From NCBI GenBank assembly GCA_035479015.1, contig DATIJC010000002.1, positions 9,777 to 73,776 of the forward strand: DNA of 64,000 bases, in the 5' to 3' direction. Shown piece after piece: positions 2,746 through 34,752 of this stretch. The position numbers were made by a program, and so were the translations under genes. The stretch comes from Patescibacteria group bacterium (GTDB lineage: Bacteria > Patescibacteriota > Microgenomatia > UBA1400 > UBA12028). The notes below the pieces were generated by a model. That model searched no databases and had not been told where the DNA came from. It was given only the letters and a program-made list of their open reading frames with translations. Position 1 is the stretch's first letter; each line of letters opens with the position of its first letter.

Positions 2746-4472
2746 AGATTCTCTAATTCTTTTACAATGTCTTCTGCATAAAACGGTCTGCCGTCATACC
2801 TATTAATACGGTGTTCAAAGGTAATGCCAGTTTGCTCCCGAATAAGCAACTCGCCTTGCCTCCCAATATTTTCTTCAACCATAACAAGCTTCTTGGCTTT
2901 GCCAGCAAGAGCTGCAAACACATCTTTATGAAATGGCATGGCAGTCATAATGTGAATGAAGTTAGCTCTTGTTGCTCCATTTTGATTTACCTGTCGCAGT
3001 ACTTCTTCCAAGACCAGGCGAGTGCTTCCCCAGCACACAAAAGTAATTTCAGCTTCTGCAGGGCCAACTACAATTGGAGCAGGAACTTCTTTGATAATTC
3101 CATCTAATTTCCGCATCCGCTTCTCTACCATTTTTTTCGTCATTAGAGCATCTTCCGTCGCGTATCCATATTCATCGTGCTCATACGAGTTAGTCAATTG
3201 CAAACCATGTGCCTGTCCCGGGACAGAGCGCGGTGAGTATCCTTCGGGTGTATCGATAAATCTTCGGAATGAATTATCTTCTGGCAGAGGATCTTGCGCC
3301 ATGGAGAGTCGAGTATTAGTAAATTCGGTGGGAATGACAGAGGCATCAACTGTCATTCGTGACTCAAGCAGTAATTTATCCGAAATGATATAGCATTGTG
3401 TGTGGTATTTTTCAGCCAGCAAGAAAGCTAAGTGAGTAATCTTAAAAGATTCTTCTAAATTGCCCGGTGTGAACACAACTTTAGGAAATTCACCATGCCC
3501 AGCATGAATAACGTACTGCAAATCAGTCTGTGATGTCCACGTAGGTAGTCCAGTTGCAGGCCCAGGCCGTCCACCCACCACCGCTACGAGTGGAAGTTCG
3601 GTTACACCGGCAAGCGACACACCCTCTACCATGAGCGCAAATCCGCCACCAGCGGTACCCGTCATTGAGCGTACTCCTGAGAAACTTGCTCCCAATGCAC
3701 CGTTGATTGCGCTGATCTCGTCTTCTGCGTGTTTGACTACGACCGGAAATTTTGCTTGCGCAGCGGCCATAAAATGCATGAGGTTACTCGTAGGTGTCAT
3801 GGGGTACGCACTGTAATACTGCACGCCTGCGGATAGTGCACCGAATCCGATTGCTTCTGCACCAGTCCAAAACAATGTTTTTGAAGCAGTTGGATTTTGG
3901 AATTTGGAATTTGGAATTTGTAAATTTTCCTGTGAAAATTTGAGTCCAGCATCGGCGGCTTTGACATTCTCGTCTATAACCGTCTGTCCCTTTTTCTTAA
4001 AAAAATCAGAAATTACTTGTTGTAATACAGAGTGATCTAACCCAAACAGATAACATGTCACCGCTAGAGCTACCATATTTGATGCCAAGCTCTTCCCAGT
4101 CTGTTCACGGGAAATTTGCACCATGGGTACAGCTACTAATTGTTCCGGTTTTATTGACGGATATTTAGTGAAATCAATCTTATCGTCTTGTGTATCGACG
4201 AGTAGCTTGGTGTGTTCGTCAAATTCGTCCAAATGCAGTCGCACAGTATCTTCATTCATGACGACTATCAGATCAACATGTTTTTGCTGACACGATACTG
4301 CATCACCTGCTTTCACCTGACCACTGGTGTGACCACCACGAATGAGGGAAGGATACTCGCTGTATTCAAAAACCTGCAAACCCGCCCGCTGGCAGATTTT
4401 ACTCATGAGAAAACTGGTGACTGCAATTCCTTCGCCTGCTTTCCCACCGATTTTCCAATTTAACGAAGCCAT
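2742..4472 (-). CDS. 2-oxoacid:ferredoxin oxidoreductase alpha subunit (KorA/PorA-like)
   Basis: 576 aa protein in the two-subunit OFOR arrangement with the downstream beta subunit. It carries an in-frame heptamer repeat at 3891-3920. Confidence 0.8.
   Translation of the reverse strand: MASLNWKIGGKAGEGIAVTSFLMSKICQRAGLQVFEYSEYPSLIRGGHTSGQVKAGDAVSCQQKHVDLIVVMNEDTVRLHLDEFDEHTKLLVDTQDDKIDFTKYPSIKPEQLVAVPMVQISREQTGKSLASNMVALAVTCYLFGLDHSVLQQVISDFFKKKGQTVIDENVKAADAGLKFSQENLQIPNSKFQNPTASKTLFWTGAEAIGFGALSAGVQYYSAYPMTPTSNLMHFMAAAQAKFPVVVKHAEDEISAINGALGASFSGVRSMTGTAGGGFALMVEGVSLAGVTELPLVAVVGGRPGPATGLPTWTSQTDLQYVIHAGHGEFPKVVFTPGNLEESFKITHLAFLLAEKYHTQCYIISDKLLLESRMTVDASVIPTEFTNTRLSMAQDPLPEDNSFRRFIDTPEGYSPRSVPGQAHGLQLTNSYEHDEYGYATEDALMTKKMVEKRMRKLDGIIKEVPAPIVVGPAEAEITFVCWGSTRLVLEEVLRQVNQNGATRANFIHIMTAMPFHKDVFAALAGKAKKLVMVEENIGRQGELLIREQTGITFEHRINRYDGRPFYAEDIVKELENL
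3891..3920. repeat. Tandem heptanucleotide repeat (AAATTCC/AAAATCC on the coding strand), in frame within the korA-like gene
   Basis: The plus strand reads tggattttggaatttggaatttggaatttg. On the coding strand it encodes QIPNSKFQNP in the linker between the N-terminal and core domains. Confidence 0.6.
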
Positions 4473-4484
4473 AGTGAGATTATC

Positions 4485-5102
4485 CTACACTATATCCCGC
4501 GGATCAACTTGTTTTCCACCCCGCATATGCAGCACGGCTGGAATAAGTGATATAACCACAATCAGAGCGATGATGGGCAATAAATATTTATCTACGTTTG
4601 GGATCACACGACCCAAGAAATAGCCACCGACTGTCATTCCAGTCGCCCAGAGTGCGCCACCAATAATATTATTAAAAAAGAAACTATTGTAATGCATGTC
4701 AGCGATGCCTGCTGCAATGGGCGCAAACGTTCGCACCGCTGGTACAAAGCGAGCGAGAATTAGTGCCTGAGCACCATGTTTGGTATAAAATCGTTGCGCC
4801 TCCGTCAAATATTTTTTCTTGAAAAAGAATGAATCTTTTTGCTTCAGGAGCCATCCGCCCAGTTTTTTACCGGTCCAGAAACCGGCGTTATCACCAAGCA
4901 CCGCACCGAGAATTAGAATAGGTACCAAGACCCAAATCGAAAATAATCCTTGCGAAGCAAGTAGACCGGCTGTAAATAACAAACTGTCACCCGGCAAGAA
5001 GAAGCCGAAAAACAAACCCGATTCGGCAAACACCATGCAGAACAATCCTACATATCCGATTGTCTTGATAAGTTCTTCCAAATCAAAGTGGGGAATGATC
5101 AT
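4485..5102 (-). CDS. DedA/SNARE-associated family membrane protein
   Basis: 205 aa polytopic membrane protein with a GLFFGFFLPGDSLLFTAGLLA motif typical of DedA. Confidence 0.7.
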   Translation of the reverse strand: MIIPHFDLEELIKTIGYVGLFCMVFAESGLFFGFFLPGDSLLFTAGLLASQGLFSIWVLVPILILGAVLGDNAGFWTGKKLGGWLLKQKDSFFFKKKYLTEAQRFYTKHGAQALILARFVPAVRTFAPIAAGIADMHYNSFFFNNIIGGALWATGMTVGGYFLGRVIPNVDKYLLPIIALIVVISLIPAVLHMRGGKQVDPRDIV

Positions 5103-5112
5103 AGAGACAAGA

Positions 5113-6321
5113 TTATACAGGTACTGATACAGTTTTATCTAATTCTTTGACGTTTGAAGCTGACATCGTCTGTACTTTACTCAATTTTCCTTCAATCGTC
5201 CGCGTCTTTTTGGCTGCATCTTCAATCGTATTGCCGGCTTCTTGTATTTTCTTGTGTGTTTTCTCCAATAAGTCCCCAAATGTCCCGAAATCCTTCTTCA
5301 CATTCCCAAGCAGTTCCCAAACCTCACTGGAGCGCTTCTGGATTGAGAGTGTGCGGAATCCCATTTGCAAACCATTTAAGATGACTTGCATTGTTGTAGG
5401 ACCAGCAATAGTTACCTTGAACTCCCGGCGCACTTGTTCCACTAAACCGGGACGGCGTAGAATTTCCGCAAAGAGACTTTCTACTGGAACAAATAAAATG
5501 CCAAAATCGGTGGTGTTGGGAGGATCAAGATATTTATCGTGGATATCTTTGGCTTCAGACTTCACACGCATGTCTAGGCTGTGTCGAAGCTGTTCTATCA
5601 AAGGTAGATCAGCTTTTTCCTGTGCTTCCACCAGTCTCTGATAATCCTCAAGCGGGAATTTAGAGTCTATCGGCAGCCACAATTGTTTTAAAGTTTCGCT
5701 CCCAGGAAGTTTAACGGCAAACTCTACCATCTCCGAACTGTTTTTCTTTATTCTCACGTTCTTCTCATATTGATCTGGAGTCAAAATCTCCTCTAATAAA
5801 TTTCCCAGTTGTGCTTCACCCCAAGTACCACGGGATTTGACATTTCCCAATACTTTTTTCAAATCTCCCACACCTACGGCCAGTACCTGCATCTCACCTA
5901 AACCTTTATGCACGGCATCTAATCTGTCACTGACTACTTTGAATGATTCACCGAAGCGTTTTTCCAAAGTAGCATGTAATTTTTCGTCCACTGTCACGCG
6001 CATGGCCTCTAATTTTTCGCCGTTATCTTTTTGAATCGAATCTAATCTTCTTTCCACCGTCTCGCGTATCTTATCCATGCGGTCCGAGATTTCCTCACGA
6101 AGCCCTTTTTGCAAATCAGCAGCTTCTTTGCGGGAGAGTGACATTTCTTCACGCAGTCTCCTCTCGTTCTTGTCAAAGTATTTACCTAATACATCTGTAT
6201 CTGTAGATTCTTTTGGTTTATACAGTAGGTAGATGATTGCACCTATCCCGATCAAATTTAAAAGCAGTAAAAGTGTAACGAACATGACACTTACAATACC
6301 AGAAAATACCTCTAACGCCAA
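5113..6321 (-). CDS. rmuC: DNA recombination protein RmuC family
   Basis: 402 aa protein with an N-terminal TM helix, a long coiled-coil and a C-terminal RmuC-like region. Confidence 0.6.
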   Translation of the reverse strand: MALEVFSGIVSVMFVTLLLLLNLIGIGAIIYLLYKPKESTDTDVLGKYFDKNERRLREEMSLSRKEAADLQKGLREEISDRMDKIRETVERRLDSIQKDNGEKLEAMRVTVDEKLHATLEKRFGESFKVVSDRLDAVHKGLGEMQVLAVGVGDLKKVLGNVKSRGTWGEAQLGNLLEEILTPDQYEKNVRIKKNSSEMVEFAVKLPGSETLKQLWLPIDSKFPLEDYQRLVEAQEKADLPLIEQLRHSLDMRVKSEAKDIHDKYLDPPNTTDFGILFVPVESLFAEILRRPGLVEQVRREFKVTIAGPTTMQVILNGLQMGFRTLSIQKRSSEVWELLGNVKKDFGTFGDLLEKTHKKIQEAGNTIEDAAKKTRTIEGKLSKVQTMSASNVKELDKTVSVPV

Positions 6322-6322
6322 A

Positions 6323-6544
6323 TTACTTCACGAAGATAAAACGTGGGACGGTTTTTCCATCAATAATTACGTCTTCTTGAAACATTTTAAGTGGCCGGAC
6401 CCACAGCTTACTTAACTCGTTTTCGTACAAACATTCATAGACCACCAAGTCTTCTTTTGTCTCACTATGTTTAGCTACGCCAATAACATGGTACAAATTT
6501 CCAGTCTTTGAATGTTTATAAATTCCTAATTTCAATTGGCTCAT
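6323..6544 (-). CDS. DUF1653 family small protein (the track ORF extends to 6715 by a GTG start, which would overlap the RNase P RNA)
   Basis: A C-terminal GIYKHSKTGNLYHVIGVAKHSETKEDLVVYECLY...WVRPL block matches DUF1653. The ATG at 6544 gives a 74 aa product; the long form starts with GTG and runs through the rnpB sequence. Confidence 0.5.
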   Translation of the reverse strand: MSQLKLGIYKHSKTGNLYHVIGVAKHSETKEDLVVYECLYENELSKLWVRPLKMFQEDVIIDGKTVPRFIFVK

Positions 6545-6551
6545 ATTTTTT

Positions 6552-6862
6552 GTGCTTGGGTATCTGTAAGCCAGATTCTGTATTTGTGCAATCATTTCTC
6601 TAATGCCTGCATCATTATCACCTTCATCCCCGCTTGCGCGAGAAATCTCGGGGAAGCATCCAATGTGGTGAAGTTCGTCAGTTGCAGCGGGGAGGATTGC
6701 CCGTTTCACTCCCACTAAAGGGATTCGTCACTGTTGCTCTTACTGTCCCCCGACTTTCGTCAAGGTCCTCCGTATTAATAGGAGCACCCTGCTTCCTGCT
6801 GTCTGGACTTTCCTCCCCACGTCGCATAAAGCTATGTGGGGCGATTGCCCGATACCCAAGCC
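6552..6862 (-). ncRNA. rnpB: RNase P RNA (bacterial type, reduced)
   Basis: The minus-strand RNA shows a P1 helix (GGCUUGGGUAUC paired with GAUACCCAAGC), a P2 helix (GCAAUCG with UGAUUGC), a P3 hairpin (CCCCAC...GUGGGG), a P4 5' strand AGGAAAGUCCAGAC and a P4 3' strand ACAGAAUCUGGCUUA, and a GUGAAACGGG motif. Confidence 0.7.
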
Positions 6863-6899
6863 TTTGTATTATACCGCCTATTCGTCTACAATAGACCAT

Positions 6900-7586
6900 A
6901 TGGATCAATTCTTTGTACCCGTCCTCTCCCAGACGGTAAACCCCTTCTTGTTGTCCCTGACCGCCTTTGCACCCAGGCTATTGGTAGCCTTGGTTGTACT
7001 GTTTGTAGGTATCATCATCGCCAAGAGCGTGCGCAGCATTCTTATCAAGTTCTTGGAGCGCCTCAAACTCTCTCATTCCCTGGAAAACACACCACTCATG
7101 TCATTCGTGAAGAATGCCGATGTCACCAATACAATTGAATCAGTAATTGGAAAAACTGCCTACTGGCTGATCATGTTAGTCGTAATTGAGATCGTGGTAT
7201 CCCTACTTGGTATTACTGCAGCTGCCGATCTGCTCAATAAGATCCTCTCATTTGTACCAAACGTATTCTCGGCAATCTTTATTTTGTTCCTAGGTACGTT
7301 CCTGGCGGGAATCGCTGAATCAGTTGTCAAAGGTGCTGTGCGCACTATTGACGGGCATAGTTCACTGTTTCTTGGTAAGGCAACCAGTTATCTCATTTTG
7401 ATCCTCGCCACTATGATTGCCATCAGCGAACTTGGCATCGCGGCGCAATTTATCACTACTCTGTTTACCGGCTTTGTCATCGCGCTAGCATTGGCCTTTG
7501 GCCTAGCGTTTGGACTGGGCAGTAAAGACACTGTCAACCGTCTCATGACTGACTGGTATGATCGCATGAAGCGGGAAGAAAAATAA
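6900..7586 (+). CDS. Polytopic membrane protein of unknown function (the track ORF starts at 6834, but that start overlaps rnpB)
   Basis: 228 aa protein from the ATG at 6900, with multiple hydrophobic helices and no recognised catalytic motif. Confidence 0.5.
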   Translation: MDQFFVPVLSQTVNPFLLSLTAFAPRLLVALVVLFVGIIIAKSVRSILIKFLERLKLSHSLENTPLMSFVKNADVTNTIESVIGKTAYWLIMLVVIEIVVSLLGITAAADLLNKILSFVPNVFSAIFILFLGTFLAGIAESVVKGAVRTIDGHSSLFLGKATSYLILILATMIAISELGIAAQFITTLFTGFVIALALAFGLAFGLGSKDTVNRLMTDWYDRMKREEK

Positions 7587-7589
7587 GTT

Positions 7590-8009
7590 TTATTCACGCG
7601 GAATGTGTATCGCTTCCAGCCAAAATGTTAGTTTTGGTTCCAAAGGAACAGACTGTAAAACTTCGGCAATTTCCACTTCACACTTTTTGATTGTCTCTTC
7701 GACAAATTCAGGAACAGAAAAGCCGGGAGAGCTTATTAGGATACGAGCATGGGGGTATTGATCATCCGCGGGAAAAAAACGTACATCTTCAGTTTCATCA
7801 AAGTATTCACTATCGCTGAGCAAGTTGTCATCATCACTACCCAAATCAAACTGAGTCTGCAGCCAGAGAAAAAAGGTATAAAAATCCTGATCTAATTTCA
7901 ACCAAGAAAACGGATAGTCTAGGATGTCTTTTGGTTTTAAAAATCCATTTTCGGTACCGCTAAAAAGCAAAGAGATCATTAGTCTTTTGCTACGATGCTC
8001 TGGATCCAT
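7590..8009 (-). CDS. Hypothetical acidic protein immediately downstream of lexA (likely co-transcribed)
   Basis: 139 aa protein rich in Asp and Glu, 2 bp downstream of the lexA stop on the same strand. Confidence 0.45.
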   Translation of the reverse strand: MDPEHRSKRLMISLLFSGTENGFLKPKDILDYPFSWLKLDQDFYTFFLWLQTQFDLGSDDDNLLSDSEYFDETEDVRFFPADDQYPHARILISSPGFSVPEFVEETIKKCEVEIAEVLQSVPLEPKLTFWLEAIHIPRE

Positions 8010-8010
8010 A

Positions 8011-8631
8011 TTAATTCCCGAATTTGCGGATCAAGCCCACACAGCGGCCTTGAATGGTCACCTTGGTCGCAAAGATCGGCTGCATCTTAGAATTGGCTGG
8101 CTCCAAGCGGATGCGGGTAGCCTCTTTGTAGAATTTCTTGAGAGTCGCTAATCCGTTGTCCAAAAGGGCGACCACGATATCGCCATTCATCACCTCCGGC
8201 TGTTCTTCAATGACTACATAATCTCCATCAAGGATTCCTTCTTCGATCATACTGTCGCCCTTCACTTTGAGTACAAAGGCGCGCTTCTTCCCAGAGACCA
8301 ACTCAGGTGAAACTTTAAACGTCGCATTCGGGTCTGTGTACGGCATGATTGGCTGCCCGGCGGCGATAAAACCCAGGAGCGGCAAGTCTACTGCATCAGT
8401 GAGGCGTAGGAAGGTACGGTCGATCAATTCCAAGCCCCGGACTGTCCCTTCATATTTGCGGATTACCTTCTTCCTGACCAATGCCTGCAGATGTTCATGC
8501 ACTGTAGCTAGAGAGCTCACACCTATAGCCGTGGCTATCTCCTGCAGTGTCGGGGAGTACCCGTTTTTTTGGATAAATTGTGCAATGAAGTCAACAATTT
8601 GGCGCTGGCGCTTATATAATGTCATTGGCAT
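8011..8631 (-). CDS. lexA: LexA repressor (S24 peptidase with N-terminal winged HTH)
   Basis: Contains the S24 peptidase Ser/Lys dyad region (GDSM...VVALLDNGLATLKKF) and an N-terminal LexA DNA-binding domain. The ATG at 8631 follows a GGGAAAG ribosome-binding site; the track ORF extends to 8697. Confidence 0.8.
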   Translation of the reverse strand: MPMTLYKRQRQIVDFIAQFIQKNGYSPTLQEIATAIGVSSLATVHEHLQALVRKKVIRKYEGTVRGLELIDRTFLRLTDAVDLPLLGFIAAGQPIMPYTDPNATFKVSPELVSGKKRAFVLKVKGDSMIEEGILDGDYVVIEEQPEVMNGDIVVALLDNGLATLKKFYKEATRIRLEPANSKMQPIFATKVTIQGRCVGLIRKFGN

Positions 8632-8705
8632 ACTTTCCCTTTCTTTCGTGCAAAGATTGTCCTGCACAAAGTCTCGTTTTCCGAAGATTACATTCAAGTT
8701 ACCCG

Positions 8706-8719
8706 AAAGTAGAGGGTAC
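8706..8719 (+). promoter_or_regulatory. Candidate operator motif AAAGTAGAGGGTAC in the lexA-uvrB divergent intergenic region
   Basis: It lies inside the palindrome TTACCCGAAAGTAGAGGGTAC (8699-8719). A near-identical motif lies upstream of uvrA (45916-45930) and a weaker one upstream of tRNA-Pro. Confidence 0.3.
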
Positions 8720-8780
8720 GGTCAAGCGGATACTAGTGGATCAATAGCTATCACTATGCATAATGTGGGATAATAGATGC

Positions 8781-10895: not shown

Positions 10896-11928
10896 GTCGG
10901 TCAAGCTCCGGTGATAGCTCACGTGCCAATGCACGCAATACGATGAAGACTGGTACCGCCAACAGCGCACCTATTGCACCACCAAATCTCGCACCTCCAA
11001 GGAGTAATACTATTGATATTAATGGACTGATTCCGACTGCGTTACGCATGACTTGTGGGACTATGATGTGATTCTCTAATTGTTGTACCAATATATACAA
11101 AACCAAGGTAACTACACCCATTATTGGAGAAACCAAGAATGACGCCACGAGTATGGCGGGGATCGCTGAAAGCGTTGGCCCGATATTTGGCAGTGCTTCC
11201 AAAATTCCCGCAAGGATAGAAAGCGGCAATGCATACGGAATATTTAAGACTGTCAAACCAATAAATGTCATTATTCCGATCGTTAACATCAAAATGAACT
11301 CTCCGCGTACCCATCCACCTAAGTCTTTTTCAATTTGCGCAACCAACTTCCTTCCCCGTTCTTCTTTATCATCAGTGCGAAATAGTATCATCGCGTACCT
11401 ATAGAGACGGTCCCGCTCTACTAAGAAATAGAGCGACATAACAAGTACCGTAAATAAAGAGAAAATAACAGAGAATGTCGATTGCACAAAATGCAGAACG
11501 GCACCAAGTGATGCTCCATATTGTGAGACCAATCCAGTAAGCTCAGTAGCTGTCAATTGTAAATGTGTCAGTGCTTTCAAGAATGACAAATTCGGCAAGT
11601 CAAATTGTGAGAATAGCCGGATCGTTTGATCCGCGAGCGGCGGTATGAGCGTAGCCCCCATCACCACAAAGAAGCCTACTAAGATCACATACACTACGAG
11701 AATTGCAGCGATACGTGAGAATCGAAGCCGCTGAAGACGGGACACCAAGGGTTCCAGTGCAGTCATTAGCACAAATGCGATCATGAGCAGGATCACGATG
11801 TCGATAGCACGCAAGAATATATACACTGCTGCGATAAATAGACCGATAGAAAACAGGGTCTTCAGTGAGATATCAATACGAAGGTTTTTCATGACTTTAA
11901 TTGTAGCAGTCAATCCATTCAATTTCAC
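10882..11928 (-). CDS. AI-2E family transporter (UPF0118/PerM-like)
   Basis: 348 aa polytopic membrane protein with AI-2E family topology. Confidence 0.65.
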   Translation of the reverse strand: MKLNGLTATIKVMKNLRIDISLKTLFSIGLFIAAVYIFLRAIDIVILLMIAFVLMTALEPLVSRLQRLRFSRIAAILVVYVILVGFFVVMGATLIPPLADQTIRLFSQFDLPNLSFLKALTHLQLTATELTGLVSQYGASLGAVLHFVQSTFSVIFSLFTVLVMSLYFLVERDRLYRYAMILFRTDDKEERGRKLVAQIEKDLGGWVRGEFILMLTIGIMTFIGLTVLNIPYALPLSILAGILEALPNIGPTLSAIPAILVASFLVSPIMGVVTLVLYILVQQLENHIIVPQVMRNAVGISPLISIVLLLGGARFGGAIGALLAVPVFIVLRALARELSPELDRLMKG

Positions 11929-12766
11929 TTCTTGTTTTCCACCACGTCATTTGTCGCTTTGCATACTGCGCTTCATGCAGGGTCCACAATTGGACTAGAC
12001 CGACTTTATCGATTTTTCCCTTTACAAATTCTTCAAGTTCCTTGTACCCCAGTGCGCTCTTTGCCTCTAGCGTCCAGTTGGGATATTTTTCTAGCAGTTT
12101 TTTATACTCTTCTATGGCTCCTTGCTCTAGCCTTTTTATCACCCTGTCTCGGATTCGTTTCTCAAGATCTTCTTTATCTACTCGTAAACCAATCCACACT
12201 GGATCCCGGATAAGGCTAGAAGACGCCTTTACCGGGATGACAGCTGAAGCTGTCACTTCGATCGCTCTGATTAACCGGCGTGGATTATTTCTGTCCGAAT
12301 TGTTCATTAACTGAAATCTCTCGGGATTCAGTTTTTTTAGTCTTTCTTGTAAATCAATTACAGAAAGTTTTTCGAGCACTCCGCGTAGTTCTTGATTTGG
12401 TTTTACGCCTACAGATTCCGGAGTATCTAGTAGTGACAAAAAGTACTGTGGTGTACCGACGACAATAAGTAGTTGATGATCTTCTTCCTCTGACTTTATT
12501 ATTACATTTCGAGCATATTCCACAAACTGTGCCACTGACCACTGTTCATCAGGATCTACCAAATCAACTCCAAAAATTTGGATTTTGGATTTTGGAATTT
12601 GGAATTTATCCAGGTCTTTTCCAGTGACAATATTTTGTCCCCGATACACTTGTTTCGAATCAACTACCAAAATATCTACAGGATTTTTACTCTGACTCGC
12701 GAGCTTTATCGCATAATCAGTTTTCCCTGATGCTGTTGGACCAACTATAACTATTGGAGTGCTCAT
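11897..12766 (-). CDS. miaA: tRNA dimethylallyltransferase
   Basis: Contains the P-loop GPTASGKT and conserved MiaA core. It carries an in-frame heptamer repeat at 12574-12607. Confidence 0.85.
   Translation of the reverse strand: MSTPIVIVGPTASGKTDYAIKLASQSKNPVDILVVDSKQVYRGQNIVTGKDLDKFQIPKSKIQIFGVDLVDPDEQWSVAQFVEYARNVIIKSEEEDHQLLIVVGTPQYFLSLLDTPESVGVKPNQELRGVLEKLSVIDLQERLKKLNPERFQLMNNSDRNNPRRLIRAIEVTASAVIPVKASSSLIRDPVWIGLRVDKEDLEKRIRDRVIKRLEQGAIEEYKKLLEKYPNWTLEAKSALGYKELEEFVKGKIDKVGLVQLWTLHEAQYAKRQMTWWKTRSEIEWIDCYN
12574..12607. repeat. Tandem heptanucleotide repeat (AAATTCC/AAAATCC), in frame within miaA
   Basis: The plus strand reads aaatttggattttggattttggaatttggaattt. On the coding strand it encodes DKFQIPKSKIQIFG. 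Confidence 0.6.
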
Positions 12767-12846
12767 ATTTTAAGGCCGGAGCAGTGATAATTTTTGGACG
12801 CGCAGTCATGTGAAACGCGCGAGCATCCAAAAATGCACTGCGAGGC

Positions 12847-14034: not shown

Positions 14035-14108
14035 TCAGATTGCAATACGGCTGAATAAGCCGTTAGTGTAACATCTGATGTGTAGGAGGGTATTTTAACA
14101 GAGTTGTC

Positions 14109-24935: not shown

Positions 24936-24938
24936 TGT

Positions 24939-25334: not shown

Positions 25335-26288
25335 TTGGAATGCGATATTTGGCAGAGAAGTATCTCTATAGGTCGCCGAGAAAATAATACGCAACAGCAA
25401 CGTGTGACAGAGATAAATAAGATACGACTGCTCTCCCAAAAACTCTAAAACATGCCTTACAGTACTTTGAATTTTCAGCAACTGTGCTCGCACTGCGATA
25501 GACACTCCTATAAATCCCGACGCATACAAAACTATTGGGAAACGTGTAAAACGCAGAGCATTAATCGTGTCGTATCCTCTGCCAACTAGTACGAATCCAC
25601 TGATGACACACAGAGTCAAACCAACCAAAGTTTTCAAGCCAAAAAAACCAATGTGAAACTTAGGCATACCCTTCTCCAATGAAAGTCGCATTCCCAAGCC
25701 AAAGTAAAAAATCCAACTAAAAGAAAAGAGGTACTGGTAATTATTACGCAAGGCAGCTATCCATCCACCAGCTCCTGCCATAAATGGCGAATACAAAAAT
25801 AGCGTGACGAGTTGAACTATTAAGAGACATATAAGAAACAGATTTTTATTTTTTAACATGCCAAAACGAAGTATCGGAAATAATAGATAGAGTTGAATAA
25901 TCATTGGCACAAAGTAGAGTTGATAGTCGCCGTAGCCAAGTAACAATTTGTTTAACAAATCAAAATGAAGCGTATGACCAATTGCAACACTGAGCACTAC
26001 AGTCCACAAAATATAGAGCGGCAGCAAACGCATTACTCGGCGCCAAAAAAATGAACTGAGAGTAAGTTTGTCCGCGTACTTACTCATCAGCGCATACCCT
26101 GAGAGCGCGATAAACAGTGGCACACAAAACCGGGCAGCCTGATCAGCGACCACCAACCAGAAATTACCTGTATATATGGTGGCGTACAGATTATGGACGC
26201 TAGATAGTGTATGAAGGAAGATAACACCCAGGATCGCAATGCCTTTTAAAATTGTCGTTGTGCGAATGTCATCTTTGAGCGCTAGCAT
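25281..26288 (-). CDS. Acyltransferase family 3 (OatA-like) membrane protein
   Basis: 335 aa protein with about 10 TM helices and acyltransferase_3 topology. Confidence 0.65.
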   Translation of the reverse strand: MLALKDDIRTTTILKGIAILGVIFLHTLSSVHNLYATIYTGNFWLVVADQAARFCVPLFIALSGYALMSKYADKLTLSSFFWRRVMRLLPLYILWTVVLSVAIGHTLHFDLLNKLLLGYGDYQLYFVPMIIQLYLLFPILRFGMLKNKNLFLICLLIVQLVTLFLYSPFMAGAGGWIAALRNNYQYLFSFSWIFYFGLGMRLSLEKGMPKFHIGFFGLKTLVGLTLCVISGFVLVGRGYDTINALRFTRFPIVLYASGFIGVSIAVRAQLLKIQSTVRHVLEFLGEQSYLIYLCHTLLLRIIFSATYRDTSLPNIAFQSLLFVVGLIASFFVQKI

Positions 26289-27667: not shown

Positions 27668-27705
27668 CGGATGATTATACCTCGAATTCTTGTATACTAT
27701 TTACT

Positions 27706-28782
27706 ATGCCCGCAGCGAAACCAGCTTCACCACTTACACTCACTCAAGTTGCTTCATTCATGCGGAAGTTCATAGCGATCGCAGGTGTAACTCTTGCGGT
27801 GATGATAGTCGGCCGTGTGTTCTTAGAAAGCGCAGTAGGATATTGGAAGGCTACTCACCCCGCACCACCGCCTCCACCTACTGCTGTCTTTGGTTTATTA
27901 CCTAGGCTGAAGTTTCCGACAAGCGTCGGAACTGCGACCTCGCTCAAGTTGGAAATCCCTCCCTCCAGACTCCGACCTGTGTCTGACCGCGCAACGGTGT
28001 ACTTTATCCGCTCTAAACGTCCAAGCTTACTAGCCTTGGACAAAGCCAAAGAGCAAGCCGCTACGCTGGGATTTTTATTTGAACCTGATCGCATAGATAC
28101 ACAGACGTATAGATGGAGGAGGACACAGCCGCTGACGTCAGTCCTTGATTACGACATTATTACAGGAATGTTTACCATGAGCTTAGATTGGCAGTCAGAT
28201 CCAAATTTCCTGCAAAATAGTAAACTTCCTATTGAAGATGAAGCTATCTTGAATGTTCGAAGCAGCCTATCGACAGCCGGCCTCCTTGAAAAAGACATCG
28301 CAACGGGCAGCGCACAAGTTTCATACCTTAAATCATCCGGTGGCACATACGAACCCACTGTGAGTTTCTCTGAAGCAGACTTCCTGCAAATAGATCTCTA
28401 CCGCACTCCGGTGAATGGTCAATATCAAGTAGTCACGGAGGAACCAGGTCACGGAACAATACGTGCAATCATTACAGGTTCAAGTGATAAATCTAATTTC
28501 TTTGCCAAATTGGAATACTATTATTTGCCAATCGAGTACGGAATATCTGCTACATATCCCATTATCACCCCCACCAGAGCGTTTCAATTACTATCTGAGG
28601 GGTCAGGATATACTGCCGCGATGCCTACCACAGGCAAAGATGTGATCGTGCGCAATATAAATCTTGCATACTATGATTCAAAAGCCGAACAGCAATACCT
28701 TCAGCCGGTCTATGTCTTAACTGGAGACGGGGGATATGTAGGGTACGTTAGTGCAATTGACCCGCGATACGTAGTACAATAA
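27706..28782 (+). CDS. Hypothetical membrane-anchored or secreted protein, Pro-rich linker
   Basis: 358 aa protein with an N-terminal TM helix followed by a PPPPPP stretch. Confidence 0.5.
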   Translation: MPAAKPASPLTLTQVASFMRKFIAIAGVTLAVMIVGRVFLESAVGYWKATHPAPPPPPTAVFGLLPRLKFPTSVGTATSLKLEIPPSRLRPVSDRATVYFIRSKRPSLLALDKAKEQAATLGFLFEPDRIDTQTYRWRRTQPLTSVLDYDIITGMFTMSLDWQSDPNFLQNSKLPIEDEAILNVRSSLSTAGLLEKDIATGSAQVSYLKSSGGTYEPTVSFSEADFLQIDLYRTPVNGQYQVVTEEPGHGTIRAIITGSSDKSNFFAKLEYYYLPIEYGISATYPIITPTRAFQLLSEGSGYTAAMPTTGKDVIVRNINLAYYDSKAEQQYLQPVYVLTGDGGYVGYVSAIDPRYVVQ

Positions 28783-28789
28783 AACAATT

Positions 28790-29071
28790 ATGTTTGAAAA
28801 TATCGGTGGACAACTTGATAAGTGGATCCGTGAAAGCATGCGACGGGAAGATAAATCAGGTATTGCTTTTGGTGATCATGTCCAATTCCGCGATAGCCAC
28901 ATTGCCGAAAAATATGGATTCACCGCAGGGCAAACTTTAATAGCTGGTGGCACTGATGTTAGCGTGGGAAGTGATTTGAGCATTACCATCCTGGACGGCG
29001 ATCATTACTACAATAAGGTACCAGCCCGTTTACTTGAAAAAACTAAGGATCCTGCAGAATCTAGGCATTAA
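28790..29071 (+). CDS. Hypothetical protein
   Basis: 93 aa ORF. The sequence TGTAGGGTACGT, about 45 bp upstream, resembles the shared AAGTAGGGTAC motif. Confidence 0.35.
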   Translation: MFENIGGQLDKWIRESMRREDKSGIAFGDHVQFRDSHIAEKYGFTAGQTLIAGGTDVSVGSDLSITILDGDHYYNKVPARLLEKTKDPAESRH

Positions 29072-29988
29072 TTTGTAGTCCAGTCCACAAGTGTTTTGGT
29101 CTCCGAAGTGAAATTATTAAATCCCCAATCTAGGAGTTTGCGCGTCTCGCCAAAACGGTCTGTACTATTCAAGACTACTGTTAATAACGTCTGATTACCC
29201 CGCACCGCTTCGCTGACAAAACACTCACCCGCCTCGTCAGTCCAACCCGTCTTGATACCTACCATTCCGGGATATACTCCTAACAATTCATTTGTTGTCA
29301 TCAATTGATGAACAAATCGTCCATCGCTGCTCCTCACTGTTTTCCCTCTTTGGTTCACAATATTTTTCAGCGTTTCATCCTTCATTACTTCCCGTGCCAA
29401 TATGCCTAGATCCCGTACAGTGGTCACGTGTTGGCTGTCTTCCAATCCCGCAGGATTGGTAAAATGCGTTTGACTCATTCCCAACTGTACTGCCTTCTTA
29501 TTCACATCACTCATAAAAGCATCGATCCCCCCTGGATAACTATCTGCCAGTGCAAATGCTGCATCGTTAGCCGAATGAATGAGCAGTCCACTGAGTAGAT
29601 CACGGACACGTATCTGCTCGCCCGGAACAAGTTTCATCGTACGCGTATCAGAAAAATCATGTGAAACTACAGTAACAATGTGATTAGGATCGAAAAACTC
29701 ACTTGCTACAATTGCTGTCAACATCTTTGTCGTAGATGCCGGAAATAATTGTTTATCGATGTCTTTTTGAGCTAGTATTTCTCCGGAATTTACATCAAGC
29801 AAGATGTAGCTCGTGGCACTGAGATCTGGGAATTGAGCAAACGTTGGGTTTTTTACAGACAAGGTAATATCAGGAGGTATTTGCAGCGATTGAGCACGAA
29901 CCAATAGCGGGGTTGCCTGCTTTCCGTATAACAGCGCGTGAACAAGGAGAAACAGTGCAAGCAATTGATGAGCCAAGTTGAGAAGCAT
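29068..29988 (-). CDS. D-alanyl-D-alanine carboxypeptidase (peptidase S11, DacA-like)
   Basis: Contains the SxxK motif (ASTTKML) and the SxN motif (HSANDAA). Confidence 0.75.
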   Translation of the reverse strand: MLLNLAHQLLALFLLVHALLYGKQATPLLVRAQSLQIPPDITLSVKNPTFAQFPDLSATSYILLDVNSGEILAQKDIDKQLFPASTTKMLTAIVASEFFDPNHIVTVVSHDFSDTRTMKLVPGEQIRVRDLLSGLLIHSANDAAFALADSYPGGIDAFMSDVNKKAVQLGMSQTHFTNPAGLEDSQHVTTVRDLGILAREVMKDETLKNIVNQRGKTVRSSDGRFVHQLMTTNELLGVYPGMVGIKTGWTDEAGECFVSEAVRGNQTLLTVVLNSTDRFGETRKLLDWGFNNFTSETKTLVDWTTN

Positions 29989-30006
29989 ACGGTTAATGGT
30001 AACAAA

Positions 30007-30867
30007 TTATTGAAAAGAAGGTGGATAGTAAACGCTTGTCGGGTGGAAATGTTCTTTGTGGACGCTAAACCCCTTCCATTTTAAATTCTCCGTCCCGAAG
30101 CGCTCGTCATATGCGCTGCATAAATCCAATATGTCACACCCCAGAAATTTTGCTAATTTTACAGTTTGATACGCTAATCCACTGGGTACATACAAACTTT
30201 GTCTACCTTTTTGACTTGTGTACTGATAAAAATACATTGCTACCCCGTGGTGGTGGAGGAAATAGAGCGCTCCATGAAGGGTTTTTCCCTCATAGGCAAG
30301 AATCATTGATCCTTCTTTCTGCATTTCCTGCCAAAGTATTCGCAAAAAATTATTTGGATACCCAGATACTTTTTTTTCAGTTTCCCACTCAGAATGCAGT
30401 TTTACTATTTCGGTTTTTGTTTCTTCCGTTAAATTGACAAAAGCAACTACTTTGTAAGAAACACCCATCCGCAAACTTCGAAGCATTTGATATTTGAGTG
30501 TCTTGGAAAAAGATGCCAGGATTTTTTCCTCACTGCCATGCAGATTACAAATGAACGTCTTGGTATACGCGTGATGATTTTTAGTTTCTTTCAAACCATT
30601 GGATCGCAGGATTTCCAGATCCAAGGATAAACCCGGATCTATATATGTTTTAACTAACGGAAGTCGTTTTTGCAGCTTCTTTAAGTTGGAAAAATCAATC
30701 GATTGTGGTCGCTGAAATTTCGCAATAGATATTGGACCAATGCGGCGAACAAAAAGATACTGACCGTTCATTGGTATCACATCCCAACCTATCCGTTCCA
30801 TCACACGCGCATATGCAGGCAATTGATGATAGTCCGGACGCGATACAAAACGAGAAAGTAAATCCAT
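30007..30867 (-). CDS. Hypothetical protein, possibly FemAB-family-like (peptidoglycan bridge formation)
   Basis: 286 aa protein adjacent to the dacA-like gene. The similarity is only by general pattern. Confidence 0.4.
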   Translation of the reverse strand: MDLLSRFVSRPDYHQLPAYARVMERIGWDVIPMNGQYLFVRRIGPISIAKFQRPQSIDFSNLKKLQKRLPLVKTYIDPGLSLDLEILRSNGLKETKNHHAYTKTFICNLHGSEEKILASFSKTLKYQMLRSLRMGVSYKVVAFVNLTEETKTEIVKLHSEWETEKKVSGYPNNFLRILWQEMQKEGSMILAYEGKTLHGALYFLHHHGVAMYFYQYTSQKGRQSLYVPSGLAYQTVKLAKFLGCDILDLCSAYDERFGTENLKWKGFSVHKEHFHPTSVYYPPSFQ

Positions 30868-30954
30868 ATAAAATGGTTCGCAATCAAATTTTTTGCGCGC
30901 AGATATTCCGAGTGTTGCGGAGACGCGAGCACAAAAAATTTAGTTTGTGAAGCA

Positions 30955-32301
30955 TTATTCCTCACTCTTTAATCTAAAGTCGATCCGTTCCATATCGCGT
31001 GGGAACATACTAGCCTCTCTCACGTTGGCGAGCTTGAGTATTTGCATGGTGATCCGTTCTGCACCAAAGGCAAAACCCCCTTCGGGCGGCGCACCATAAC
31101 GGAACGCTTCCAAAAACATTTCAATTTTGGCTGGATCCATTTTCCACTCCTCCACTTGGTGAAGCAACTGATCATAATCACTTACACGCCGTCCGCCCGA
31201 CAACCACTCTACACCGCGGCAAAGTAAGTCCATTCCTTCGTTGTATTCAGGATCTTGCGGGTTTGGATAGACATAGAAAGGTTTCTTTTTCGTAGGATAG
31301 CCATACACAAAGATAAAGTCAGATCCAGTTTCTTCTTTGATAATGCTACAGATTTCCCGCTCATCCTCAGGATTCAAGTCTTTTTCCCCGCGCACATCCC
31401 TGCCATTTTTATCAAAGATTTTTTGCTGTACTTCACGTAAGCTCAGCGTCGGAGTTTTTTCAATCATTTCCGGTAAACTTGCTCCCAGTAATTCCAATTC
31501 CTTCGCGCAATCTTTTGCAACGCGCTTCAAGATGTGGCGCACAGTGCTTTCAGCCATATCTCGTACTTCTTCCCAGCCTTCGATAAATCCCATCTCTGCA
31601 TCGAGAGAGACAATTTCCGTCAAATGACGGGTCGTCACACTCGGTTCGGCACGGAAAACTTTATTGACACTAAAGACTCGCTCAAAGGCCGTCATGACAA
31701 TTTGCTTATACAACTGTGGACTCTGCGTGAGATAGGCTTCGTGCTCAAAATAGTCAACTTTAAATACGTCGGCTCCGCCTTCGGCAACTGCAGGCGTGAT
31801 ACAGGGGGCTTGAAACTCGAAGAAATCTTCTTGCTTCATGAACTCACGGAATCCATCAATAACTGCTTCTTGGACTTTAAAAATTGCCTGTACTTTGGGA
31901 TGACGCAGCGTCAGTGCCCGATGATCTAACAAAGTAGGCAATTCCACATTTAGTGTTTCCGCACCCATATCAAATGGAAGTGTGGCGGCCCTTGCCAAAA
32001 TAGTTAGTTTGAGTGCTTCCAGTTCAACGCTTCCCGTACTCATTTTTGGATTCACTAGCCGCTCTGGTCGTGCATTTACCTTCCCCTCTATTTCCACTAC
32101 AAACTCACTGCGCAGCTCTCCAGCCATTTCATGCGCTGTGGCAGAAGACTGGGGTAAAAATACTACCTGCAGCAGTCCGGAACGGTCACGCAGGTCGATG
32201 AAGATGAGTTTGCCGTGATCCCGGCGCACATGCACCCAGCCCTTGACGAGTACTGTCTTGCCAACATGTTCCACCGTCTGCGAAATTAGTGTTCTTTTCA
32301 T
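30955..32301 (-). CDS. aspS: Aspartyl-tRNA synthetase (short archaeal/eukaryal-type form, 448 aa)
   Basis: Contains class II aaRS motifs (FRAEPS, GGFAFGAERI) and an N-terminal OB anticodon-binding domain. Confidence 0.9.
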   Translation of the reverse strand: MKRTLISQTVEHVGKTVLVKGWVHVRRDHGKLIFIDLRDRSGLLQVVFLPQSSATAHEMAGELRSEFVVEIEGKVNARPERLVNPKMSTGSVELEALKLTILARAATLPFDMGAETLNVELPTLLDHRALTLRHPKVQAIFKVQEAVIDGFREFMKQEDFFEFQAPCITPAVAEGGADVFKVDYFEHEAYLTQSPQLYKQIVMTAFERVFSVNKVFRAEPSVTTRHLTEIVSLDAEMGFIEGWEEVRDMAESTVRHILKRVAKDCAKELELLGASLPEMIEKTPTLSLREVQQKIFDKNGRDVRGEKDLNPEDEREICSIIKEETGSDFIFVYGYPTKKKPFYVYPNPQDPEYNEGMDLLCRGVEWLSGGRRVSDYDQLLHQVEEWKMDPAKIEMFLEAFRYGAPPEGGFAFGAERITMQILKLANVREASMFPRDMERIDFRLKSEE

Positions 32302-32600
32302 AAAAAAACCACGTACTAGTTGTCCGCTAAAGGACGTCTAAGACGTGGTGCCACCTTTATTACTTCTCTGTAAGCTGTTCGGGCTTTCCCGGGAATGCTC
32401 GCAATTTGTCAAACTGCTCAGACGCTTTCCAATTAAGTATTATTGTACGCCAAAGCGGCATATTGACAAGCGCCCAATCGAAATTTATACTTCCCCTGTC
32501 CTATGAGTTGTAAACACCTTATTACTATTCAAATGCTTCGCGTCCTTTTTGGACGGGGAGGTTTGGTGGAATAAGATGTAAATATTAATTAATCTGAAAC
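32302..32600 (-). promoter_or_regulatory. Candidate T-box riboswitch leader of aspS (tRNA-Asp responsive)
   Basis: The minus strand reads AUAAAGGUGGCACCACGUC, matching the T-box consensus AGGGUGGNACCGCG, with a UGGC bulge complementary to GCCA (tRNA-Asp discriminator G73). It overlaps a terminator hairpin ACCACGU...ACGUGGU followed by a 7-U run ending at the ATG. Confidence 0.45.
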
Positions 32601-32661
32601 CCAAAGACCTCCCACTAAACAAGGGAGGTTTTTTTATGAGTTTCATAAAGAAAGGAGTTCT

Positions 32662-32856
32662 ATGGCTAGACCAGAAGAACCAAGCGCTATGAAAGAGATG
32701 ACTTATGCATCAGCATATGCGATGCTTCTTAGTGCACTAGGAGGAGATGAAAAACTTGCTGAAAAGTTTGCACACAGTTGGACAGACGAGGGTGAGACGG
32801 ATCCTCTCAAGTTAGTTACGAAGGCACTCAATAACACCCGTGATTGGGATGATTAA
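32662..32856 (+). CDS. Hypothetical small protein
   Basis: 64 aa ORF with a strong AAAGGAG ribosome-binding site 7 nt upstream. Confidence 0.3.
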   Translation: MARPEEPSAMKEMTYASAYAMLLSALGGDEKLAEKFAHSWTDEGETDPLKLVTKALNNTRDWDD

Positions 32857-33109
32857 TGGAAAGGAAAATATGGATAATGAAACACGAACGAGAATTCTAA
32901 AGGCAGCTGAAAAACTCGAGACAGATTCTAAAAAAATAGGAGGTGATAAGGACACTGCAACGAATCACAGACATATTGCAGGAATCCTAAGAAAATACAC
33001 AAAAAGTGAAAACTGGTTTAAAACGATGTATCCCCTCGCAGAATCAGATTCACTTATGCATAGTGCAAAAGCTATCATCGATTCGATTGAATCGGGCAGC
33101 AGAGTTTAA
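32840..33109 (+). CDS. Hypothetical small protein
   Basis: 89 aa ORF overlapping the previous ORF by 17 nt. Confidence 0.3.
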   Translation: MIGMINGKENMDNETRTRILKAAEKLETDSKKIGGDKDTATNHRHIAGILRKYTKSENWFKTMYPLAESDSLMHSAKAIIDSIESGSRV

Positions 33110-34752
33110 TGAATGTCTTTGACAATTATCTGAAGACTTTTTGACCCATTCCAATGGTTCACCTGCAGGTGACCAATCAATGACACGGTGGGGGAATTTG
33201 AAAAGTGTTCAAGTTCCCTCCCGTGTCCAAACCAAAGCAGATCACAGTCCGCAGTGCGCAGTTTTAAGTGTTTTCCTTCTTTTCCGATAATTTTTGCACT
33301 GTCGATTTTGACTTTATCCATTTGAAATAGTGGTTCGCGGTTACCGGGACCAAACGGCTGCATGACCGTCAATCCTTGCGCCACTTCCATCGTTTGGAGA
33401 GTTGTTGGCAATACAGAATCCACATCAATCAATGCTGTCAGCAGTGATACATCAATTGTGTTTTTGGCATGTTGGCGCAATTTTTGCGAAAAGACTTCAA
33501 TCTGTGCAGTTTGCAACTTCAATCCAGCCGCCATCGGATGGCCTCCGATTTCCATAAGATCAGACTTTACTTCACGCAGCAGATTTGTGATATGTACACC
33601 TGCGACACTTCTGGCTGATCCTTTCGCTGTTTCACCTGAGATCGCCAACACTATCGAGGGTTTATAAAACATTTCAGTGAGACGACTGGCGATCAGTCCT
33701 ATCACGCCCTCATGAAATTGATCGCTGGCTACGATGATCACACTCTCCTCTTTCCACGTCTGTCGCTTTGCAAGTGCAATCTCATACATCTGTGTGGTCA
33801 GATCCTGACGGGTGATGTTGGTATCGTGCAATTTCCCAATTAGAACCGCCGCTTTACTTCTATCCTTCGTACACAGTGCCCGCAGAGCATCCAGTGCATT
33901 TCCCAGACGCCCCATCGCATTAATGCGCGGAGCAATAGCAAAATTGACTGCGTACGTATCAACCGGTTTTCCTTTTAACCCGGCAGCCTCTATCAGCAAT
34001 TGCAAACCAATCCGCCTCGTTTTCTGCAACTGTTCTAAACCAAATTTAACAAATGATCTATTCGCGTCCGTGAGAATTACTTGGTCAGCAATCGTCGCAA
34101 TCGCACAAAGATCGAGTAAATCTTCAATATTTTTTGATGCTTGGATTTTGGATTTTGGAATTTTAGCAAGTTCTCTTGCTAACATCCACGCTACAGTTGT
34201 GCCACAGAGCTTGGTCGTATGAATAATGCAATCAGCGGGTGGCAGTTTATCCTCAGGTTCGTGATGGTCAGTGAGTATTGTGAAGACCCCAACATCGGCA
34301 AGCCTCTGCCACTGCGCCTCAGCTACGATCCCATTGTCTACTGAGATTAAAATAGAAGGCTTATTCTTTGCCAGAATTTCATCTAAAGCTTTTGTAGACA
34401 AACCATAACCATGCTCTTTACGGTCAGGAATAAACGGTAACACACTAAAGCCGATGTTGTGCATCGTTTCCCACAGTACCGTGGTCGCACATACGCCGTC
34501 ACAATCATAATCACCAAAGATAATTATTTTTTCTTTGTTTTCCAAAGCCTCTTTTAGCCGCTCTACTGCTTTGTTAACTTGTTCTTTATCGATGCCAACA
34601 TCCTCTAGAGTCAAATCTATCGGATCTTTTGGGTGCAAAAAACTTTCTTTATCAGTAATGCCCCTATTTTTTAATAGGATGGAGAGTATTTCTTCATTAG
34701 TTTTTGGCTCTTTTTTTGAAAGCAGATTCCAGTTCATACAAGATGCTATCAT
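33106..34752 (-). CDS. recJ: Single-stranded-DNA-specific exonuclease RecJ
   Basis: Contains DHH (IIFGDYDCDGV...DHH) and DHHA1 motifs (GGHPMAAG). It carries an in-frame heptamer repeat at 34141-34164. Confidence 0.85.
   Translation of the reverse strand: MIASCMNWNLLSKKEPKTNEEILSILLKNRGITDKESFLHPKDPIDLTLEDVGIDKEQVNKAVERLKEALENKEKIIIFGDYDCDGVCATTVLWETMHNIGFSVLPFIPDRKEHGYGLSTKALDEILAKNKPSILISVDNGIVAEAQWQRLADVGVFTILTDHHEPEDKLPPADCIIHTTKLCGTTVAWMLARELAKIPKSKIQASKNIEDLLDLCAIATIADQVILTDANRSFVKFGLEQLQKTRRIGLQLLIEAAGLKGKPVDTYAVNFAIAPRINAMGRLGNALDALRALCTKDRSKAAVLIGKLHDTNITRQDLTTQMYEIALAKRQTWKEESVIIVASDQFHEGVIGLIASRLTEMFYKPSIVLAISGETAKGSARSVAGVHITNLLREVKSDLMEIGGHPMAAGLKLQTAQIEVFSQKLRQHAKNTIDVSLLTALIDVDSVLPTTLQTMEVAQGLTVMQPFGPGNREPLFQMDKVKIDSAKIIGKEGKHLKLRTADCDLLWFGHGRELEHFSNSPTVSLIGHLQVNHWNGSKSLQIIVKDIH
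34141..34164. repeat. Tandem heptanucleotide repeat (AAAATCC/AAATTCC), in frame within recJ
   Basis: The plus strand reads ttggattttggattttggaatttt. On the coding strand it encodes LAKIPKSKIQAS. Confidence 0.6.

Follow-up and report, generated by a model that had tools for sequence, protein, structure and literature searches.

Three unrelated enzymes encoded in a 64,000-nt stretch of a Patescibacteria genome, referred to here as the window, contain in frame the same short tandem repeat of seven nucleotides. We consider it fairly likely, with a probability of roughly 0.65, that the three sites are short heptanucleotide simple sequence repeat (SSR) arrays of the form (AAATTCC)1-3(AAAATCC)1-2, lying in flexible loops or a linker of a korA-like 2-oxoacid oxidoreductase, the tRNA-modifying enzyme MiaA and the exonuclease RecJ (Table 1). 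The source genome is the Patescibacteria metagenome-assembled genome GCA_964572785.1, contig CAZNEY010000001.1 (434,716 bp). The presence of one peptide in three unrelated enzymes can be accounted for by arithmetic together with a known class of repeats: the heptanucleotide SSR class is already described (PMC4679880, PMC4692102), and the arrays are not a new insertion system. What is documented here is that heptanucleotide arrays can lie in frame within core enzymes of Patescibacteria, whose genomes are ultra-small.

Table 1. Host genes and heptanucleotide arrays, with coordinates counted from the first nucleotide of the window
Feature	Coordinates	Strand	Product or site	Protein length	Assigned by
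Host gene 1	2742..4472	(-)	fused 2-oxoacid:ferredoxin oxidoreductase gamma + alpha (korA-like)	576 aa	Pfam
Host gene 2	11897..12766	(-)	tRNA dimethylallyltransferase MiaA	289 aa	Pfam IPPT
Host gene 3	33106..34752	(-)	single-stranded-DNA-specific exonuclease RecJ	548 aa (543 aa, alternative start)	Pfam
Array 1	core 3890-3920; one degenerate unit extends to 3926	in (-) strand gene	KorA gamma/alpha linker		
Array 2	12575-12607	in (-) strand gene	MiaA variable loop after TGKD motif		
Array 3	34141-34163	in (-) strand gene	variable loop of RecJ DHH domain		

An earlier, sequence-only reading of the window had placed in-frame arrays in these three genes, and its coordinates hold to within 1-3 nt. 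The unit common to all three is TTGGAWT, that is AAATTCC/AAAATCC on the coding strand, present in 3.3-4.7 copies. Tandem Repeats Finder (TRF) returns a period of 7 in each case, with 4.4 copies and 95% matches for the core of array 1, 4.7 copies and 92% for array 2, and 3.3 copies and 93% for array 3. On the coding strand, array 1 is composed of (AATTTAC), AAATTCC x3, AAAATCC, AA, the degenerate AATTTAC on its 5' side bringing it to a 37-nt run (L121); array 2 of AAATTCC x2, AAAATCC x2, AAA(TT); and array 3 of AAATTCC, AAAATCC x2, AA. Such a concentration is far above chance. The two-unit pattern TTGGAWTTTGGAWTT has eight matches in the window, all within the three arrays, versus 0.05 expected from shuffles, and the four exact period-7 runs, all of the AAAWTCC family, are to be compared with an expectation of 0.1. 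Across periods 6-12, exact tandem runs of at least two units plus 3 nt occur in the window only at the three arrays (0-0.2 expected per period), while those of periods 4 and 5 are at chance level. Likewise, in a scan of the window with a degenerate (AAAWTCC)4 profile, only the three array regions reach at least 75% identity, and regions matching at least 22 of the 28 positions number three in the window versus none in shuffles. The arrays thus show the marks of the long SSR (LSSR) class, namely a head-to-tail 7-nt unit, about three copies or more, high identity and an abundance above chance. A fourth, partial unit, which the sequence-only reading had proposed at 49088-49102, is present but at chance level, the 11-mer GGAWTTTGGAW with at most one mismatch having 10 matches outside the arrays versus 7.1 +/- 2.3 expected for the whole window. 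This partial unit adjoins an intrinsic-terminator-like element, a GC-rich hairpin followed by a T-run (49107-49136), directly after the stop of the open reading frame (ORF) 48726-49088. The only other period-7 signal from TRF has a low score (34) and is a weak run of ACTGCGC in 3.4 imperfect copies at 56960-56983, inside ORF 56344-57522.

The likeness of the peptides is explained by the length of the unit. Translation returns the peptides that had been reported, QIPNSKFQNP in KorA (residues 185-194), KFQIPKSKIQIF in MiaA (residues 54-65) and KIPKSKIQAS in RecJ (residues 197-206), of which the repeats themselves encode KFQIPKSKIQ(IF) in array 2, KIPKSKIQ in array 3 and, once the degenerate unit is included, LQIPNSKFQNP in array 1. 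The three arrays are read in two different codon phases, yet each yields some cyclic permutation of the heptapeptide K-(I/F)-Q-(N/I)-P-(K/N)-S, AAAATCC being translated as KIQNPKS and AAATTCC as KFQIPNS. Near-identical peptides arise because 7 and 3 are coprime, so that three units (21 nt) run through all three frames. Any heptamer array yields the same cyclic heptapeptide whatever its reading frame, and the K-F/I-Q-I-P-K-S-K signature, previously offered as the possible trace of an unknown mechanism, needs none: it is the three-frame translation of a heptamer. We found no similarity between the three host proteins beyond the repeat-encoded residues, and their resemblance is a matter of DNA and not of protein homology, as the sequence-only reading had rightly held. 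Neither strand of the AAAWTCC unit contains a stop, a property shared by 50% of heptamers. With a Kyte-Doolittle value of -1.81 (15th percentile), the sense peptide KIQNPKS is hydrophilic; GFWILDF, encoded by the antisense strand, is hydrophobic (+1.3).

In proteins that are otherwise predicted well, the arrays code for the least confident segments, which are loops or a linker of variable length. In KorA, named '2-oxoacid:acceptor oxidoreductase subunit alpha' at NCBI, the array peptide lies between the POR gamma domain (residues 12-177) and the POR_N alpha domain (211-443), in a linker whose sequence is variable across about 40 homologs. In MiaA, whose IPPT domain spans residues 39-278, it lies in the hypervariable loop between the motifs TGKD and R(I/L)FG, and in RecJ, with its DHH (75-220), DHHA1 and RecJ_OB domains, in a loop of which relatives have either a long or a short form. 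The idea that the segments are tolerated in inter-domain linkers therefore applies to KorA, while those of MiaA and RecJ are variable loops within domains. The AlphaFold models of MiaA and RecJ, built from the homolog alignments, are confident overall (mean predicted local distance difference test score, pLDDT, of 92.3 and 94.0, respectively). In both, the lowest internal block coincides with the array peptide: in MiaA it has a pLDDT of 69 at residues 51-60, and in RecJ, where residues 196-205 are coil, a pLDDT of 65 at 201-210. Location within genes and on the minus strand tells little about the arrays, as coding sequence makes up about 92% of the window and 72% of the coding bases fall on that strand; their in-frame state is a matter of survivorship.

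We then have to consider how these segments compare with those of orthologs. The nearest homologs, searched among about 5.8 billion non-redundant proteins for MiaA and RecJ and 1.8 billion cluster representatives for KorA, are only 55-59% identical. The KorA linker measures 27 aa, the median of about 40 homologs (24-31 aa; 26 aa in the closest), and without its 10-12 array-encoded residues it would be shorter than in any of them. The MiaA loop, with 12 aa, equals those of P0007, P0011 and P0036 in length and exceeds the commonest short form by four, and the RecJ loop is the long form of most of the closest relatives, 9-10 aa above the short form. Alignment thus does not bear out the lineage-specific insertions that had been proposed, the KorA linker being at median length and the MiaA and RecJ loops falling into existing length classes. 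Judged from these alignments, a simple net insertion is excluded for KorA and compatible with the other two loops.

In most orthologs the sequence of these loops is unrelated to the arrays, and the nearest RecJ and KorA orthologs carry unrelated sequence of equal length. A scan of all fetched homologs for array-type 5-mers nevertheless gave several matches. The MiaA ortholog P0031 has KSKFQN in the same loop, encoded by DNA that resembles a decayed array, and the RecJ ortholog P0124 has QNLKSKIL in the loop of array 3, so that the presence of the same peptide in distant orthologs, which the sequence-only reading would have taken as a sign of ancestral protein sequence, is found in part, in one MiaA and one RecJ loop. 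Further matches comprise a degenerate AAATCYC array that covers about 54 nt of a different MiaA loop (P0114, L127) and the run AAATCCC-AAATTCC-AAAATCC within a loop of the RecJ OB domain (P0137, L126); two KorA homologs also gave matches. MiaA of the window, P0031 and P0011 all have the tripeptide K-F-Q at one and the same position (encoded by AAATTCCAA in the window), which suggests a resident seed. Furthermore, the RecJ loop orthologous to that of array 3 holds, in another genome (GCA_964509365.1; L126, 10577-10615), a degenerate (AGACTRC)n array of about 5.5 units that encodes RLQTTDQRLQTTE, with an autocorrelation of 0.41-0.53 at lags 7, 14 and 21 against a mean of about 0.24 (range 0.10-0.35) at other lags. 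One RecJ loop bearing two different heptamer arrays in two lineages implies that such loops are recurrent array sites in this clade.

The three arrays are probably related to each other through copying between sites. Each combines the two units as (AAATTCC)n(AAAATCC)m, with one polarity throughout, while mixed-unit arrays make up only 8 of 185 elsewhere (Fisher p = 1.5e-4), and sharing so rare a structure speaks for copying between sites, or their homogenisation, rather than for three separate births. Polarity shared by the unit variants was also considered as proof of a common origin and rejected; it is not significant alone, and both polarities occur elsewhere. Of the spreading insertion that had been proposed, the spreading thus finds some support in the compound structure, and the insertion is not supported, the loops being of ordinary length and a target duplication lacking. 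We infer slippage as the generator of the arrays, copying between sites and neutrality. Slipped-strand mispairing or unequal recombination would create an array and change its size in 7-nt steps. Within an ORF, a change would persist only if it preserved the frame, as does a gain or loss of three units (21 nt, 7 aa), and if the result was also free of stops and encoded a hydrophilic, proline-containing coil; this filter of frame, stops and hydropathy would explain why the arrays are sense-oriented and sit in permissive loops. Thereafter the arrays would evolve as ordinary loop sequence or become homogenised, copying proceeding by ectopic gene conversion or by template switching onto loops that already had repeat-like sequence. 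Most likely, then, the arrays are near-neutral passengers that supply linker sequence, and not switches.

The same heptamer is found in ORFs well beyond Patescibacteria. A scan of one genome per GTDB species for arrays of at least three units gave at least 120 stretches (L001-L120, 860 kb) from Cyanobacteria, Acidobacteriota, Chloroflexota, Verrucomicrobiota, Planctomycetota, Bacteroidota and several Patescibacteria, and the matches listed contain 641 period-7 arrays of many unit types. Among these matches, 45 of 129 arrays lie deep inside long ORFs, and 37 of those 45 have AAAWTCC as the sense strand (p = 1.5e-5). All ten hosts tested belong to genuine Pfam families of enzymes or receptors (Mur ligase, GT2, a XerC/D-type integrase, TrmD, PrmC twice, dihydroorotase, a TonB-dependent receptor, PyrB and HgmA). 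When the PyrB host (L076) was compared with PDB chains to gauge a net insertion length, the homologs were too distant, with several gaps in the region. The two PrmC/HemK methyltransferases, from Udaeobacter (L060) and Chitinophagaceae (L093), are unrelated, and in both the array occupies one and the same loop, ahead of motif I and directly preceding (I/L)LD(V/I)GTGSG; with the RecJ loop and its two arrays, this makes of permissive loops recurrent landing sites. In many of the matches listed, a long ORF starts at the array or 0-12 codons downstream of it, and AAAATCC is the sense strand (for instance L007, L010, L016, L019, L029, L044, L053, L056, L072, L073 and L091). We also considered whether the spread across phyla is special to this heptamer, an idea weakened by viral contigs (L133-L184), in which GGAWTTT is found in 52 stretches and three control heptamers of similar composition in 67, 40 and 53.

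A densely sampled analogue is provided by MnmE of the Nostocales. In Dolichospermum sp. LEGE 00240, mnmE contains a perfect, in-frame (AAAATCC) array of 33 nt, about 4.5 units (L023, 560-592 of the reverse complement; further loci L130, L131 and L132), which encodes SKIQNPKSKI after the NKxD motif, in a loop that appears from the alignments to be a hotspot. The peptide is kept in about 110 Nostocales orthologs (84-98% identity, nearly all of 464 aa), and one Dolichospermum MnmE lacks exactly 7 aa, or three units, within it. In this analogue of the window's case, the length variant shows that frame-preserving changes of three units occur in nature, and the case as a whole implies that array-derived loops can be ancient and become fixed protein sequence across an entire order. 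Five other Nostocales MnmE proteins (P0470, P0491, P0497, P0442 and P0448) have different insertions in the same loop, for example TETQRTQR-rich ones, with a repeat-derived look.

Several observations weigh against passive slippage as the whole explanation. The profile scan found no decayed, older arrays in the window, and the 82 kb of source contig surveyed, which include about 8 kb and 9.6 kb flanking the window, hold three arrays of one heptamer family only, all of them coding, with no further array in those additional 18 kb or so; generic slippage should yield several unit types and a range of ages. The array-bearing loops are not longer than those of the nearest orthologs (which are 55-59% identical), and this lack of net lengthening implies that a simple expansion by three units must be paired with a loss of older sequence, or else that conversion took place. 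No unit-number variants of the window genes were detected by exact-protein look-ups and in protein clusters at 90% identity, all contigs coming from one study and one population and encoding identical proteins; the MiaA sequence is identical across three sequencing runs (SRR9179561-63) and two NCBI assemblies. Two further points come from outside the window. GGAWTTT arrays have a length mode of 31-34 nt, about 4.5 units, which comprises 83 of 185 arrays (62 of 129 among the GTDB matches listed and 21 of 56 in viral contigs) versus 29 of 170 for the three control heptamers, in which the mode is weak or absent. In MnmE, 29 of 33 array codons are identical versus 691 of 1157 in the rest of the gene, in pooled and non-independent pairs. 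The length mode and the conservation of the MnmE codons hint at a constraint at the level of DNA that a passive model does not predict.

Such a constraint would be expected if arrays of about 4.5 GGAWTTT units were a functional DNA or RNA element, selected as a binding site or structural signal with a role in regulation, in replication or recombination, or through a weak G-tract structure, and merely accommodated by coding loops. We find this doubtful. In its favour are the length mode, far stronger than in the control heptamers, the MnmE array, which is near-perfect in DNA across genera at 85% amino-acid identity, and the three arrays of the window, near-perfect and without decayed companions. 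The arrays of other phyla that stand in sense 0-12 codons from the ORF start recall the TAACTGA repeats (PMC4679880), and a preference for four units is reported for the GGGNATC repeats too (PMC4692102). However, structure prediction gives neither a hairpin within the repeat nor a G-quadruplex for either strand of the arrays, whose minimum free energy, with 4-5 nt of flank per side, is 0 to -5.3 kcal/mol, the stems only pairing flank bases with array ends. Neither a promoter-like nor a terminator-like signal common to the three sites was found, and the positions of the arrays within the three genes have nothing in common. The frequency in viral contigs is no higher than that of the controls. 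To our knowledge, no partner protein of GGAWTTT arrays has been described, which also counts against such an element.

A dedicated mini-insertion or templated copying, in which a preformed element of about 16-33 nt is pasted into new sites, would explain the rare compound structure and the 16-nt core AAATTCCAAAATCCAA that the three arrays have in common, and likewise why this core recurs at another position in the RecJ of a relative, why all copies are fresh and intermediates absent, and why the KorA linker would, without its array, be shorter than in any homolog, which points to replacement and not to simple slippage. Still, we judge it improbable. The three sites have no common flanking sequence, target-site duplication, terminal inverted repeat or hairpin, the copies vary in length (23, 33 and 31-37 nt), comparison with orthologs shows no net insertion, the neighbourhood of the arrays yielded no candidate enzyme, and the agreement in polarity of three arrays is by itself not significant. 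Miniature inverted-repeat transposable elements and the small dispersed repeats (SDRs) of Nostoc are therefore poor models, the arrays having neither defined ends nor target duplication nor a net insertion of constant length (the nearest orthologs being 55-59% identical). SDRs, reportedly described by Elhai and colleagues in 2008 as 21-27 nt long, of defined length and with a predicted secondary structure, resemble the arrays in being very short, in that they can sit in or near heptamer arrays and in occurring occasionally in genes; the arrays of the window differ from them in having no defined length and no predicted secondary structure. We give little credence to the more general proposal that arrays of about 32 nt are written or maintained in many phyla by a sequence-specific process, be it a dedicated enzyme or selection on DNA or RNA. 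If it were true, that process would act in ORFs, making arrays a recurrent source of loops and linkers and driving a concerted evolution of dispersed copies, and the three Patescibacteria arrays would be its recent products and not the debris of passive slippage. In the same vein, if the constraints at the DNA level are real, heptamer arrays would be a general and partly directed source of protein linker sequence.

It is distinctly unlikely that the arrays are contingency loci, in which slippage by one or two units, in either direction, would throw korA, miaA or recJ out of frame and act as a reversible off-switch. Like the SSR contingency loci of host-adapted pathogens, they have a unit that lies in an ORF and is not a multiple of three, so that slippage by a single unit causes a frameshift; heptanucleotide tracts drive phase variation of the Haemophilus HMW adhesins, and model bacteria that lack miaA or recJ have altered mutation or recombination phenotypes. 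Yet contingency loci are known for long tracts, copy-number polymorphism and surface or restriction-modification hosts, none of which is seen here. With 3.3-4.7 units the tracts are far below those of known switches, the hosts are housekeeping genes, MiaA is identical in three runs and two assemblies, the 90% clusters (from one population) have no length variants, and an analogous array is fixed across a whole cyanobacterial order. Finally, a K/Q/N/P/S-rich peptide motif that was ancestral or convergently selected, with the DNA repeat as a secondary matter, is very improbable: it could draw on the protein-level conservation of SKIQNPKSKI across Nostocales MnmE, on KFQ at one MiaA position in three orthologs and on KSKFQN in the same loop of P0031, but the three host proteins are unrelated, their peptides are cyclic permutations that arise from one DNA unit read in two codon phases, the corresponding segments of the nearest orthologs are of equal length and unrelated in sequence, and order in the models is lowest at the array peptides.

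Among known repeat systems, the short tandemly repeated repetitive (STRR) sequences of heterocystous cyanobacteria are also heptamer arrays scattered over the genome. Their units, said to have been described by Mazel and colleagues in 1990 as STRR1-3, are reportedly CCCCAGT, TTGGTCA and CAACAGT and mainly intergenic. The arrays studied here differ in their unit, AAAWTCC, in their host, a member of the Patescibacteria and not a cyanobacterium, and in amounting to three copies in 82 kb, all coding, and do not belong with the STRR sequences. In many Nostocales among the GTDB matches listed, GGATTTT arrays adjoin other heptamer arrays.

The closest parallel is the LSSR class. Heptanucleotide repeats are the most abundant class of long SSRs in many prokaryotes (Mrazek 2007, as summarised in PMC4679880 and PMC4692102), and LSSRs resemble our arrays in having few to several 7-nt units, at many loci, over-represented and with slippage as the proposed origin (Mrazek et al. 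2007; PMC4679880, PMC4692102). The earlier surveys stressed large and often GC-rich genomes and mostly intergenic repeats, unlike the present case of a small Patescibacteria genome with arrays in frame in enzymes. The TAACTGA arrays shared by Beggiatoaceae, Cyanobacteria and Bacteroidetes (MacGregor 2015, PMC4679880) are likewise a single heptamer in distant phyla, in 2-6 copies, some of them inside ORFs and outside assigned functional domains. In that paper, constraints of translation shape the sites at which heptamer repeats persist, stops and the encoded peptide being regarded as the main filter on array persistence. The TAACTGA unit differs in giving forward stops and in lying mostly upstream of start codons (PMC4679880), whereas AAAWTCC is stop-free and its copies in the window are internal to genes. 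The quadruplex-forming GGGNATC and GGGGAYT repeats of Xanthomonas and Nostoc (Rehm et al. 2015, PMC4692102) likewise show a marked tendency towards about four units and carry a G-tract on one strand; GGAWTTT differs in having only GG tracts, no predicted G-quadruplex and, here, a coding location. In the literature searched, the unit GGATTTTGGATTTT and its variants gave only unrelated primer or sequence matches and were not described as a bacterial repeat, and no paper linking Patescibacteria or the Candidate Phyla Radiation (CPR) with heptamer repeats was found.

Other genomes among the GTDB matches show how dense such arrays can become. A genome of the Moraniibacteriota (L069) has 12 heptamer arrays in 8 kb and one of the Saccharimonadales (L030) has seven in 8 kb, of many unit types; compared with these array-rich CPR genomes, that of the window has a single family at low density. 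In a member of the Anaerolineae (L061, 4316-4431), three GGATTTT arrays of 32 nt are separated by 10-nt spacers with a period of 42, inside a long open frame, an arrangement that amounts to a higher-order repeat of the GGATTTT array.

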